Shown: positions 12,308 through 16,871, counted from the stretch's first letter. The stretch: DNA of 64,000 nt from Escherichia coli (GCF_029227855.1 NZ_CP074356.1), one strand, 5' to 3'. Numbers and translations: made by a program. The notes: a model not told the origin generated them from the sequence alone.

Positions 12308-14458
12308 TTAACGCCGCCGACGGCGTGGGGATTTCGTTTTTTCTTTCTTTTTAACTATACCTTCAGGGACTTCCGGTTGCTCTATCGGAAATACCGGTAA
12401 TGCATCCAGTAGCCGCTTGCCGTAGTTTTTGGTGAGCAAGCGTTTATCGTAAATCACCACTTCGCCCCAGCAACCGTGGCTTCGAATCAGTCGCCCAACC
12501 TGCTGAATCAGGTTAAACGAGGCGCTCGGCAGGCTTTGCACCTCAAACGGATAGCGGTTGAGGCTTTTCAGCCATTCCCCTTCGGTGATCACCACCGGGC
12601 TGTCGATGGGCGGAAAAGCGATTTTGTGGATATGCACCTGGCTGAGCAGATCACCTTTCAAATCAAGCCCTTCGGCAAATGACTGTAAGCCCACCAGCAC
12701 GCTGCGCTCACCGTTGGCGACGCGTTTGCGGTGCAGTTCAACTAAACGGTAACGCGGCTGATCGCCCTGCACCAGCAACATCAGACGTAAATCCGTCACA
12801 TAATCGAGAAAGCGCTGCATCGCCCGTCCGCTGGCAAACAGTACCAACATACCGAGATGTTTTTTGCTCTCCACCTGCTCACGGAAAAAGGCCGCCATTT
12901 CGGCAATATGCTGCTCTTCGTTGTCGAGGGAAGGCTCAACGCGCATCCGGGGAATAACAATTTTGCCCTGTTCGCAGTGGTTGAAGGGGGAATCCAGCGC
13001 CACAAAACGGTCGCCCGCTTTCTCTTTCAGACCACTCATCTCCTGCAAACGCGAAAAACTATTCAGCGAACGCAAGGTTGCGGAGGTGACAATAATGTGC
13101 GGAATACTGCGCCACAGCAGCCTTTCCAGCTGATCGCTGACACGTATCCCCACGCAGTGAAACCAGAGATGCAGTTGCCCTTCGCGCTCTTCCCGCGTCG
13201 CCCATTTGGTCACCGGCGCACCGGAAGATTGCGCCAGAGACGCCAGCCGCCAGAGTTTGCTTTGCGCCTCGAACATCCCCAACGCGCGGTTCATCTGCAA
13301 AATCAACCGATGCAGGCGTACAATGTCATGGCTGCCGGTTTTCTCACTTAAATCGTTAAGAAATAACTCCGCCAGACCACGCAGCATCTCGGTGAGTTTT
13401 GCCAGCCGCTGGCAGATCTCCAGCACTTCATCAGGCAGTTCGCCCATCGCAAAACGGTGCTCTGCCTCCTGCCCGGCAGGCATGTAGAGATTGAGAATGT
13501 TGTTTAACGAGGCGATAAGCTCATACAACTCTTCACAATGCGCATTCAAACGTTCAGGGATCGCCAGCGGTGGGATGGTCTTCGGGCGAAACTGCTCCGT
13601 GCAGGTAGCGACCAGTTTCGTGAACAAGTCCAGCTGTAGCCGATACCACGACGCGGTGATTTCGGCGCTCATCTCCAGCGCATCCCGCGCCACATCTGGC
13701 AGGTGATGACCTTCGTCCAGCACCAGCAGCAGATTTTTCGGGTCAGGCAGTACGGCTTCGCTTTCCATCGCCGCCATCACCAGCGCATGGTTTGCCACCA
13801 CCACTTCCGCTTCCTGAATCTCCCGACGAGCAACAAAAAACGGGCATTCACGATAGTAGTAACAGTTACGGTTGAGGCAGCTGGCTTTGTCGGTACTCAA
13901 ACGACGCCAGAGATCATCATCTATAGCGATATCCGTATGATCGCGCAGACCATCCCATTTATAAGTGTCGAGATCGCCCTTCAACTTTGCACAACGCTTT
14001 TGCTCTTCCTGATTGTTCGGCGTCAGCTCGTCGTCAAGAAACGCCAGCAGATCCTGTTGCGTGGGCTCAGTGCTGGCAAGCGCCGTCAGATTACGCGGGC
14101 AAACGTAGCGCCCACGCCCAAAAGCGGCAGTGAATTTAAGATCGGGAATGATCTTTTTCAGCAGTGGCAAATCTTTGCTGTAGATCTGATCCTGCAATGC
14201 TACGTTGGCGGTACTCACCACCAGCGTTTTTTGCTCTTCGCGGGCAATGGCGATACCGGGGATCAAATAGGAGAGCGTTTTCCCAACGCCGGTGGGGGCT
14301 TCAATCGCCAGATGCCGCCCTTCTTCTCCGGCCAGCGTTTTGGCGACGTCCGCAATCATCTGCCGCTGCGGCGCACGGGGAATAAAGTCGGGGATCTGTT
14401 CCTGAAGCGCCTTATACCAGGCGGCAATTTGCGCTTTAAGCGCGGCGGTTAATGCCAT
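12308..14458 (-). CDS. dinG: ATP-dependent DNA helicase DinG
   Basis: 716-aa ORF with DEAH motif (VLDEGHH) and Walker A (GVGKT); length matches DinG. Confidence 0.95.
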   Translation of the reverse strand: MALTAALKAQIAAWYKALQEQIPDFIPRAPQRQMIADVAKTLAGEEGRHLAIEAPTGVGKTLSYLIPGIAIAREEQKTLVVSTANVALQDQIYSKDLPLLKKIIPDLKFTAAFGRGRYVCPRNLTALASTEPTQQDLLAFLDDELTPNNQEEQKRCAKLKGDLDTYKWDGLRDHTDIAIDDDLWRRLSTDKASCLNRNCYYYRECPFFVARREIQEAEVVVANHALVMAAMESEAVLPDPKNLLLVLDEGHHLPDVARDALEMSAEITASWYRLQLDLFTKLVATCTEQFRPKTIPPLAIPERLNAHCEELYELIASLNNILNLYMPAGQEAEHRFAMGELPDEVLEICQRLAKLTEMLRGLAELFLNDLSEKTGSHDIVRLHRLILQMNRALGMFEAQSKLWRLASLAQSSGAPVTKWATREEREGQLHLWFHCVGIRVSDQLERLLWRSIPHIIVTSATLRSLNSFSRLQEMSGLKEKAGDRFVALDSPFNHCEQGKIVIPRMRVEPSLDNEEQHIAEMAAFFREQVESKKHLGMLVLFASGRAMQRFLDYVTDLRLMLLVQGDQPRYRLVELHRKRVANGERSVLVGLQSFAEGLDLKGDLLSQVHIHKIAFPPIDSPVVITEGEWLKSLNRYPFEVQSLPSASFNLIQQVGRLIRSHGCWGEVVIYDKRLLTKNYGKRLLDALPVFPIEQPEVPEGIVKKKEKTKSPRRRRR

Positions 14459-14472
14459 GAGAAAACCTGAAA

Positions 14473-14492
14473 TACTGTATAAACAGCCAATA
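14473..14492. promoter_or_regulatory. LexA (SOS) box of dinG
   Basis: tactgtataaacagccaata is the reverse complement of the known non-canonical dinG SOS box TATTGGCTGTTTATACAGTA, 15-34 bp upstream of the dinG ATG. Confidence 0.7.
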
Positions 14493-14628
14493 TTGTGGCA
14501 TTTTTCGGTTTTCAGGGGTAATGGTTTTTCTGTTTCTGGAAAGCGGCTCGCAATAACGTTTTCCGGATGTGAAGTTTTCTCGCGGCAGAAGAAACATCAT
14601 TGTGCAGCAAAAGACATTGTACATCAGC

Positions 14629-14910
14629 TTATTCCGCTGGCGGCCATTGCAGAGCGGTATGTAAAACACGCAGTACCGAGAGCGTATCGCCCTCCACTTG
14701 ATAGACAAGCACATAATGCGGCCTGACAACGGCTTCATGTGTACCAGCGACTCGTCCGGCCCGGTACATCTCCGGGCGTTCACAGGCCTGTTCCGCAATG
14801 GCTTCAAATTGATTATCAAGGGCTATTGCCGCTAGCGGATTATCTTTACTGATGTATTCCATGATTTGCTCCCTGTCAGACAGGGACATTGGCTTCCATT
14901 CCAGACGCAT
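14629..14910 (-). CDS. ParE/RelE-superfamily toxin-like protein (93 aa)
   Basis: MRLEW…IAEQACERPEMYRAGRVAGTHEAVVRPHYVLVYQVEGDTLSVLRVLH shows the ParE pattern seen in Caulobacter ParE1 (aligned by eye from memory); start overlaps the upstream gene stop as TAATG. Confidence 0.85.
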   Translation of the reverse strand: MRLEWKPMSLSDREQIMEYISKDNPLAAIALDNQFEAIAEQACERPEMYRAGRVAGTHEAVVRPHYVLVYQVEGDTLSVLRVLHTALQWPPAE

Positions 14911-15350
14911 TAATCCCCCTTCAGCAAGGCTTTTTTACGGGCAGCAAATAGACTTTTGGCCTCTTCATGAGAGAGTGCCGGGCGTGGATCGTCAATGGCG
15001 GCCTGCACCTGCTCTCGAAACCAGGCATCATACGCGGCAGCTTCATGAGCTCGTTTTAATGCCTCAGCCCTGTCTGGTCGGGTCGTTTTCTTCTGACCGT
15101 CCGGGTCGTAATTAGAGGCGTCGACTTCAAACCGGGCAATACCAACATCTTTCAGGTAGTTGACAACCGTTTCCAGCCGTTTGAACAGGCGGATTTGCCG
15201 ACTGCGTTGTGCTGCAAGAGGCCGTTCAGTGTGGCCGTATTTCACGGTCAACGACCAGCCTCCCTGGGTGCCAATAACGTGTGCTGCATCCACTACGCCA
15301 GATTCAACCAGTTTATGTAAGGTTGAGTGATCGATCGTTTCTGGTGCCAT
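14910..15350 (-). CDS. Putative cognate antitoxin / partner protein (146 aa) with unrecognised N-terminal region
   Basis: ORF with AAAGAGG RBS about 10 nt upstream, translationally coupled to the ParE-like gene; only one Met; C-terminal charged helical tail (DAWFREQVQAAIDDPRPALSHEEAKSLFAARKKAL); family not assigned. Confidence 0.6.
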   Translation of the reverse strand: MAPETIDHSTLHKLVESGVVDAAHVIGTQGGWSLTVKYGHTERPLAAQRSRQIRLFKRLETVVNYLKDVGIARFEVDASNYDPDGQKKTTRPDRAEALKRAHEAAAYDAWFREQVQAAIDDPRPALSHEEAKSLFAARKKALLKGD

Positions 15351-15377
15351 AATGCGCTAACCTCTTTGTATACAGCA

Positions 15378-15420
15378 TGCAATTTATAATTAAAGATAGA
15401 GCAATTAATAATAAATTGCA
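15378..15420. promoter_or_regulatory. Promoter/operator-like inverted repeats upstream of the toxin-antitoxin cassette
   Basis: tgcaatttat (15378-15387) and ataaattgca (15411-15420) are perfect 10-bp inverted repeats; an inner gcaatt-N7-aattgc palindrome lies in an AT-rich stretch with a TATAAAT-like -10 on the minus strand. Confidence 0.35.
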
Positions 15421-15506
15421 GCACCTTGATCGTAAATTGCCCAGGATAAAATTGCGGTAGAAAGAGACTTGTTGCGAAGATGCCGGGCATCGCCCGGCAT
15501 AAAAGA

Positions 15507-16871
15507 TTACTGCGCAGCGGCAGGTTTACGCGGACGGCGGCGGCGTTGTTGTTCGCCTGCCGGTTTGGCATCGCCAAGACGACGAGATGGTTTTTCTGCA
15601 GGCTTCGCGCTCGCAGATTTTGCGCCACCTTCAGCGCGGCGTGGTTGCTGTTGACCGCGACCACCACCTTGCCCACGACCGCCGCCGCCACGTTGCTGGC
15701 GACCGTTCTGGATTGGTTCGGCTTTGATTGACGGGTCCGGCTCATAGCCCGGAATCGCAATGCGCGGGATCTCTTTTTTCAGCAGTTTTTCGATATCACG
15801 CAGCAGTTTGTGTTCATCAACACACACCAGCGACAACGCTTCACCGGTAGCAGCCGCACGACCGGTACGCCCGATACGGTGAACATAATCTTCCGGTACG
15901 TTTGGCAGTTCATAGTTGACCACGTGCGGCAACTCTTCGATATCCAGACCGCGCGCAGCGATGTCAGTTGCCACTAGTACACGAATATCGCCCGATTTAA
16001 AATCAGCCAGCGCACGGGTACGCGCACCTTGCGATTTATTGCCGTGGATCGCCGCACTGCGGATGCCATCTTTATTGAGCTGTTCAGCCAGATGGTTAGC
16101 GCCATGTTTGGTACGGGTAAACACCAGCACCTGCTGCCAGTTCCCTTTCCCAATCATGTGCGACAACAATTCGCGTTTGCGTTTCTTATCAACAAAGTGA
16201 ACATGCTGGGTCACCTGATCAGACGCGGTATTGCGGCGTGCCACTTCGATTTCCAGCGGGTTGTGCAACAGTTTTTCCGCCAGAGCTTTAATATCGTCAG
16301 AGAAGGTCGCGGAGAACAACAGGTTCTGGCGCTTCGCAGGTAGTTTTGTTAACACGCGACGGATATCGTGGATAAAGCCCATGTCGAGCATGCGGTCAGC
16401 TTCATCGAGGACGAGGATTTCAACCTGATCCAGCTTCACCGCATTCTGATGTTCCAGGTCCAGCAGACGTCCCGGCGTTGCAACCAGCACATCAACGCCG
16501 CCGCGCAACTTCATCATCTGCGGGTTAATGCTGACACCGCCAAACACCACCAGCGAACGAATGTTCAGGTATTTGCTGTAATCACGGACGTTTTCGCCAA
16601 TCTGCGCCGCCAGTTCACGGGTCGGGGTAAGAATGAGCGCACGTACCGGACGACGCCCTTTGGCGTGCGGCTGGCGAGTGATCAGGTGTTGCAACAGCGG
16701 CAGCGTAAAGCCCGCTGTTTTGCCGGTGCCAGTCTGGGCGCTAGCCATCAGGTCGCGGCCTTCCAGCACCGCAGGGATCGCCTGCTGCTGAATAGGGGTG
16801 GGTTCACGGTAACCCTGCTCGGCAACGGCGCGCAGGATATCAGGGCTTAAACCCAAAGAATCGAAAGACAT
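15507..16871 (-). CDS. rhlE: ATP-dependent RNA helicase (DEAD-box)
   Basis: 454-aa ORF with DEAD motif (VLDEADRM), Q-motif, and a Gly/Arg-rich basic C-terminal tail; matches RhlE. Confidence 0.95.

Follow-up and report, generated by a model that had tools for sequence, protein, structure and literature searches.

A 921-bp cassette in the Escherichia coli chromosome (GCF_029227855.1, NZ_CP074356.1; the 64,000-nt stretch that was analysed is called "the window" below) carries two small minus-strand genes, the first encoding a protein of 146 amino acids (aa) and the second a 93-aa protein of the ParE toxin family. It is near-certain that the two form a toxin-antitoxin (TA) module. From comparative sequence evidence, it is also fairly likely that the module is a self-contained, two-gene relative of the PaaA2-ParE2 systems, in which the N-terminal, ParC-like part of the 146-aa antitoxin (the "head") would be a dimeric operator-binding domain and the C-terminal, PaaA2-like part (the "tail") would neutralize the toxin. 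The layout is that of a type II TA system. The genes are co-directional with the antitoxin gene first, they are translationally coupled through a TAATG overlap in which the antitoxin TAA stop codon shares 1 nt with the toxin ATG, and one of the two products is a recognised toxin. Coordinates of all features are collected in Table 1.

The tail was identified by homology. Pfam PaaA2 (PF21217, "Stability determinant") matches residues 104–130 (E 4.2e-10), and a single-sequence search of the Protein Data Bank (PDB) with phmmer extends the similarity to residues 83–139 (3zbe_A, PaaA2, E 2e-4). With a profile of 70 family sequences, positions 87–149 align to essentially all of PaaA2, with E-values of 1.2e-10 for 5czf_A and 1.7e-10 for 3zbe_A. 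The E. coli O157 PaaA2 structures (3zbe, 5cw7, 5cze, 5czf) are the sole significant PDB matches of the 146-aa protein; the score against an NCBIfam model of a 45-residue RelB-family antitoxin falls narrowly below the cutoff (47.1 bits vs. 50). In the AlphaFold2 (AF2) model the tail consists of helices at residues 92–120 and 128–145 with a conserved DDPRP kink between them, with predicted local distance difference test (pLDDT) values of 87–95. Three features expected of a PaaA2 family member were found: a significant match to the PaaA2 profile and to crystallised PaaA2, a ParE2-like toxin encoded immediately downstream, and a predicted two-helix, toxin-wrapping region. The initial annotation had read the charged, helical C-terminus as an antidote tail, and the family match, which in profile form covers the whole of crystallised PaaA2, agrees with this. 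That the tail is the ParE-neutralizing region is well supported by homology and conserved synteny, and a probable interface with the toxin can be deduced by analogy with the PaaA2-ParE2 crystal complex (5CW7).

The 93-aa protein matches Pfam ParE_toxin (PF05016) over model positions 1–86 of 89 (E 1.3e-13) and scores above the cutoff for TIGR02385 (RelE/StbE; 38.5 bits vs. 27.9). Among proteins of known structure, ParE2 from E. coli O157 is its best relative (5cw7_B, E 1.7e-6, aligned residues 5–90). The pairing was followed in 80 related loci of other species (L009–L088), one genome per species, from the Gamma- and Betaproteobacteria and Rhizobium, found in a search from 13 closer sequences. 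A toxin homologue is located immediately downstream in 71 of them, mostly with a 1- or 4-nt overlap. In Xenorhabdus nematophila (L002/L003 3441–3590, 49 aa) and in loci L032, L041, and L071, the ParE-like gene is truncated (47–67 aa) beside an intact antitoxin gene, which suggests toxin decay with the antitoxin or regulator kept.

Such cases bear on the idea that the E. coli module is itself a decayed or domesticated remnant, with an inactive toxin and a 146-aa protein serving mainly as an orphan regulator or an anti-toxin "immunity" gene. The distribution of the cassette, confined to a single chromosomal site and to 324 of the 5426 complete E. coli genomes (~6%, at a coverage of at least 80%), could be read in the same way. 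The toxin in the window is full length, however, both against ParE_toxin and in the ParE2 alignment; the 1-nt translational coupling is intact; and among the best matches listed, the cassette is 100% identical in at least 20 E. coli genomes. Decay is accordingly considered improbable.

The 146-aa open reading frame (ORF) is a genuine gene rather than a product of chance. Translation confirmed the length, and the initiator Met as the only one in the protein, as first noted. RefSeq holds the identical protein as WP_001522657.1, "hypothetical protein," and the PGAP label for the 93-aa product is "RelE/ParE family toxin." Clustering at 90% identity gives ~900 clusters of relatives, and a set reduced to 50% identity contains 838 matching representatives; most of these are full-length, at 145–160 aa, and PF28031 (ParC-like) and PF21217 occur together in nearly all of the 120 best matches. 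The unusual length that had drawn attention to the protein is therefore unusual only against antitoxins of the ParD/ribbon-helix-helix (RHH) type; within its own family, ~146 aa is normal. The E. coli gene itself is ordinary, its architecture being widespread and already in domain databases. In two metagenomic proteins, P0144 (171 aa) and P0262 (190 aa), the head and part of the tail are followed without a break by the C-terminal half of a ParE toxin, and these are apparent antitoxin-toxin fusions, or else deletion or frameshift products.

One AlphaFold DB entry, A0A376K0B8 (E. coli, 95 aa, 93% identical to part of the protein), is named as a RelB/DinJ family addiction module antitoxin, and might be taken to mean that the true antitoxin is a shorter, PaaA2-only product of an internal non-ATG start, with the N-terminal extension an annotation artefact. 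The entry is probably a truncated gene call or an assembly fragment of the same gene. A shorter isoform was rejected as very improbable: the full-length architecture recurs in the ~900 clusters, the N-terminal 78 residues are folded in the AF2 model (pLDDT 96–98) and are conserved like the tail (over 69 homologues, identity to the query averages 45 and 44%, respectively), the Shine-Dalgarno (SD) sequence and promoter lie 5' of the first ATG, and there is no internal Met.

The head forms a separately folded alpha+beta domain in the AF2 model, which bears out the suggestion of a fusion antitoxin with an extra N-terminal domain. It comprises a helix at residues 8–17, strands at 20–28, 31–38, and 41–46, a short strand at 53–56, a helix at 59–69, and a final strand at 75–77. 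The predicted TM-score (pTM) of the whole chain is only 0.61, so head and tail are unlikely to be rigidly packed against each other. The region had been described as matching nothing that could be named, but it belongs to Pfam PF28031, "ParC-like." PF28031.1 is a precomputed match on a 99% identical protein (P0001) and a "weak" one (E 1e-5 to 1e-3) on P0024 and P0083; the Pfam profile search of the 146-aa protein itself did not report it. The NCBIfam model for ParC (NF041544) aligns at positions 2–78 of 80 with residues 6–83 (E 3.5e-8), with a score well short of the whole-protein cutoff (33 bits vs. 95), and identity to ParC of the IncP-6 plasmid Rms149 is only 22%. The fold is not RHH, helix-turn-helix (HTH), AbrB, or Phd; the nearest solved folds are eL38 and then the FtsH periplasmic domain. 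An RHH fold was absent from both profile and structure comparisons, and the partner is not ParD/RHH-like; a full-length match to a family outside TA systems was looked for and not found. The most conserved residue of the whole protein, R54 (96%), is in the head.

A tandem model of the head, head-(GGGGS)6-head, built with a duplicated alignment, gave a pTM of 0.77, with pLDDT above 90 in both copies and below 50 in the linker. Two 84-residue domains without interaction would be unlikely to score so high, and the model suggests that the head forms a homodimer.

The region upstream of the antitoxin gene holds a candidate site for such a dimer. In the 128 nt from the cassette edge to the ATG there are four exact copies of GCAATTT and one of GCAATTA, all within 77 bp (15379–15455); over the whole window, GCAATTT occurs at a rate of 21 per 64 kb. 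Two of the five copies make up a 19-bp palindrome, GCAA-N11-TTGC. Neither GCAATTT nor GCAA-N11-TTGC is enriched over the full 64-kb window, and the signal consists of local clustering and conservation across loci. A putative sigma-70 promoter was placed by inference from the TTGCAA-N16/17-TAnnAT arrangement of the relatives. A consensus scan gave an alternative, TTTACG-17-TATTAT (15436–15408), with its -10 at the palindrome center; either predicted promoter overlaps the palindrome. Since the palindrome is inside the 921-bp cassette, it moves together with the module.

Of the 80 related loci, 45 have an exact GCAA-N11-TTGC in the 140 nt that precede the antitoxin gene (11,200 nt over all loci). 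The background elsewhere in the same loci is 11 in 378,978 nt, from which 0.33 would be expected. With one mismatch allowed, the site is present in 60 of 83 loci. There are 24 distinct sequence versions, with variable centers and usually 58–71 nt 5' of the ATG, in Escherichia, Serratia, Xenorhabdus, Photorhabdus, Pseudomonas, Rhizobium, Chromobacterium, and several betaproteobacteria. In upstream regions that have otherwise diverged, conservation is highest over the palindrome. This block spans the -35 and spacer, with its left arm belonging to the -35-like TTGCAA and a TAnnAT -10 coming 1–2 nt past its right arm.

The palindrome is also found upstream of stand-alone ParC-like genes (83–89 aa, no PaaA2 tail), at -73 (two Aeromonas plasmids) or -46 (one metagenomic contig). 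A Burkholderia/Cupriavidus/Ralstonia clade (L064, L075, L078, L083, L084, L088, L048, L057) differs in the loop at residues 47–54, which reads KRG-DVRVF instead of QRSxxVRLF, a one-residue deletion. These loci have no palindrome upstream, and the same upstream regions contain conserved (A/T)AGTAAAAT-type repeats ~21 nt apart. In a 35% identical plasmid homologue, GCATG-N12-CATGC is found in place of GCAA-N11-TTGC. In these comparisons it is the head, and neither tail nor toxin, that the palindrome follows. Of the two roles initially offered for the extra domain, DNA-binding or sensor, this pattern favors the first.

A mechanism can be proposed on this basis. Like ParE2, the 93-aa toxin would be a nucleoid-associated, SOS-inducing, and probably topoisomerase-directed poison, and the C-terminal ~60 residues of the antitoxin would wrap and neutralize it as a two-helix PaaA2-type element. 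A palindromic site implies a dimeric binder; the head dimer would bind the 19-bp palindrome and the flanking GCAATTT half-sites over its own promoter. Protein bound to the palindrome would occlude RNA polymerase, and the antitoxin, probably jointly with the toxin, would repress its own operon.

A different account keeps the ParE-neutralizing tail but gives the head a role other than DNA binding, in oligomerization, stability (protease recognition), sensing, or partition, and reads the palindrome either as no more than a conserved promoter core or as a binding site for some host factor. The head fold, which is unlike known DNA-binding domains and has the FtsH periplasmic domain as its nearest solved structure after eL38, would suit it. 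So would the origin of the family name in a plasmid "partition-associated" protein of unknown activity: the available papers describe ParC as an auxiliary partition protein without established biochemical function, and parC of pRA2 is reportedly dispensable. The name conveys no mechanism. The tandem-model pTM is equally compatible with dimerization alone, and the left arm of the palindrome overlaps the -35-like TTGCAA. A promoter core, however, leaves the right arm unexplained, since sigma-70 has no need of an ATTGC at a fixed 11 bp, yet this arm persists in 24 distinct versions from different classes of Proteobacteria. A host factor would have to be conserved from Rhizobium to Escherichia and tied to the module, which is unlikely, and the palindrome is carried within the mobile cassette. 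Further, the palindrome accompanies tail-less ParC-like genes and changes with the head loop, and without a DNA-binding head a two-gene type II module would be left with no autoregulator. On balance a head that does not bind DNA seems rather unlikely, though clearly less so than a decayed module.

The reading of the head as an operator-binding domain must also be set against several observations. Besides the unfamiliar fold and the reportedly dispensable parC of pRA2, the coincidence of the left arm with the -35-like element means that promoter function alone could explain part of the conservation. The half-site centers are 15 bp apart, which differs from the usual one-turn spacing. Some loci with the QRS loop have no palindrome (L018, L027, L033, L037, and L050, with 140 nt examined, and L098, with 200 nt). 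Many of the 80 loci are related (~35 are from Pseudomonas), so that independent events are fewer than the counts suggest; the covariation of loop and operator is seen in perhaps two or three clades; and the support for a dimer consists of pTM and pLDDT scores from a single-chain linker model. In two of the exceptions, the Photorhabdus loci L018 and L027, the upstream 140 nt are replaced by unrelated sequence (GC-rich and resembling repetitive extragenic palindromic elements in L018), with antitoxin and toxin genes intact.

The closest characterised system is paaR2-paaA2-parE2 from prophage CP-933P of E. coli O157:H7 (3ZBE, 5CW7, 5CZE, 5CZF). In both, an antitoxin gene precedes a toxin gene to which it is closely coupled. 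Of the toxins with known structure, ParE2 is the nearest to the one in the window, and the tail (~83–146) is homologous throughout to O157 PaaA2 (63 aa), including the W-x-R...DPRP motif and the two-helix layout. Identity is low, at ~30% for the toxin and with a tail match of E 2e-4 from the single sequence. In O157, PaaA2 has no domain for binding DNA, and control of the operon falls to a separate third gene, paaR2 (PMC8630535). By contrast, the cassette in the window consists of two genes with no space for a third, and its antitoxin has an extra 78-residue ParC-like head and an operator-like palindrome upstream; the features that define the O157 system, an antitoxin with no extra domain and a separate regulator gene, are thus lacking.

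Similarity to ParC (NF041544; Rms149 parC) and PF28031 is confined to the head, where the match takes in nearly the whole ParC model. Unlike ParC, the head is fused to a PaaA2 tail and encoded in a chromosomal TA cassette and not in a parA/parG/parC operon, where in Rms149 parC follows parG. With neither a score above the NCBIfam cutoff nor a plasmid partition context, the protein is not a bona fide ParC. Canonical ParD-ParE systems (RK2, Vibrio cholerae ParD2-ParE2, Caulobacter ParD1-ParE1) likewise have a ParE-family toxin neutralized by the C-terminal region of an antitoxin encoded upstream, and an antitoxin N-terminal domain that dimerizes and binds an operator in its own promoter, as proposed here. 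They differ in that the present tail is of the PaaA2 family, not ParD, and the head does not have the RHH (beta-alpha-alpha) fold.

The stand-alone ParC-like genes of Aeromonas salmonicida plasmid pS121-4 and of metagenomic contig L097 encode the same head domain (~50% identity), behind the same palindrome. Unlike the fusion, the head is here a separate small protein, in a three-gene layout formally like paaR2-paaA2-parE2. On pS121-4 (L007 2498–3396) it is directly upstream of CopG and RelE/ParE genes, and on the contig (L097 332–1317) directly upstream of Gp49/HigB-like and HTH_37 genes. Xanthomonas oryzae pAH28 (L006 1816–2852), from a search with matches on ~200 Xanthomonas plasmids, encodes a ParC-like head joined to another kind of tail, basic and of low complexity; the gene overlaps by 4 nt a downstream gene for an M48-family metalloprotease, and its upstream inverted repeat, ATCAAAC-N6-GTTTGAT, differs from GCAA-N11-TTGC. 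The head may here be the basis of a further two-gene module.

Table 1. Features of the cassette and its two genes, in window coordinates (AF2, AlphaFold2; SD, Shine-Dalgarno)
Feature	Position	Strand	Basis
Cassette, 921 bp: promoter/operator, antitoxin, and toxin	14558–15478		blastn vs. K-12
Toxin gene, 93 aa, ParE family	14629–14910	-	PF05016, TIGR02385, ParE2 match
Antitoxin gene, 146 aa: ParC-like head, linker, and PaaA2-like tail	14910–15350	-	ORF, domain matches, AF2
Tail, residues 83–146, homologous to full-length PaaA2	14913–15104	-	Pfam and PDB matches, AF2 helices
Linker, residues 79–100, with conserved RPD (R91 P92 D93), into first tail helix	15051–15116	-	pLDDT 76–79 (blocks 81–100), conservation
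Head, residues 1–78, ParC-like alpha+beta domain	15117–15350	-	AF2, NCBIfam ParC, PF28031 on P0001, tandem model
SD sequence GAGG, 10 nt 5' of antitoxin ATG	15361–15364	-	Sequence
Promoter-proximal GCAATTT half-site (coding strand AAATTGC), kept as TTATAAATTGCA in enterobacterial loci	15379–15385	+	Alignment
Putative sigma-70 promoter: -35 CTGCAA (15421–15416), 17-nt spacer, -10 TATCTT (15398–15393)	15393–15421	-	Alignment to relatives
19-bp palindrome GCAATTTATTATTAATTGC (GCAA-N11-TTGC), candidate core operator over -35 and spacer	15401–15419		Exact in 45/80 loci
Upstream GCAATTT half-site copy	15434–15440	-	Motif search
Upstream GCAATTT half-site copy	15449–15455	-	Motif search

The cassette is located between rhlE (15507–16871) and dinG (12308–14458), both also on the minus strand; cecR/ybiH comes next after rhlE in the ORF map and in the RefSeq annotation of an identical stretch. 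Comparison with K-12 by blastn shows matching flanks, with window 15643–15479 corresponding to K-12 832100–832264 and window 14557–14301 to K-12 832971–833227, and unrelated sequence between them: a 706-bp K-12 segment (832265–832970) containing ybiA has been swapped for the 921-bp cassette. In K-12 ybiA encodes a NADAR-family N-glycosidase; it is absent here, with the cassette in its position. A 99% identical copy is found in Escherichia whittamii (L009), where the upstream sequence is the same. The dinG gene is intact in the window (716-aa ORF) and is annotated as a frameshifted pseudogene in E. coli strain 7/2 (L001 908–3059), which has an identical cassette.

At the cassette boundary, directly past the rhlE stop codon, there is a perfect 9-bp stem, ATGCCGGGC / GCCCGGCAT, with a 3-nt loop (15480–15500), which is also present in K-12. 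It is presumably the rhlE terminator, and would shield the TA promoter from rhlE read-through. No structured RNA was found in 14300–15700 with Rfam at E ≤ 1. The PADLOC annotation of anti-phage defence systems had no match for either the 146-aa or the 93-aa protein, and matches in PHROGs were only to families of unknown function. Full-text literature searches found no paper on a ParC-like-PaaA2 fusion or on a TA locus at ybiA/rhlE/dinG.

A wider proposal, about evenly poised between right and wrong, is that the ParC-like domain belongs to a class not recognised before: it would be dimeric and bind DNA sequence-specifically, with an alpha+beta fold unmatched by the DNA-binding folds of known antitoxins and repressors, and with the basic loop at residues 47–54 reading GCAA-N11-TTGC. 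It would be a portable operator module, fused to or placed beside different pairs of the RelE/ParE superfamily and also used in plasmid partition operons. The ParC-like-PaaA2 fusion would then be the ancestral, self-regulating form, and O157 PaaA2 a truncated derivative that handed regulation to PaaR2.

At the level of annotation, the "hypothetical protein" of ~6% of complete E. coli genomes can now be identified, and a TA cassette is seen to have displaced ybiA. The novelty lies in a function and an operator, both specific and testable, proposed for a domain family that is uncharacterised, with a bearing on regulation of the PaaA2 type. For the ParC-like domain, which is catalogued and widespread and has not been studied, the prediction is concrete, and names both a 19-bp operator and a loop that may set specificity. 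Confirmation would extend the few antitoxin DNA-binding folds, RHH, HTH, AbrB/SpoVT, and Phd/YefM, by a new one. The three-gene O157 PaaA2 system would, if the proposal is true, have a common two-gene relative whose antitoxin carries its own regulator domain. This bears on the published question of whether the ancestor of PaaA2 lost a DNA-binding domain (PMC8630535), which the novel reading of the fusion as ancestral, if true, would answer.

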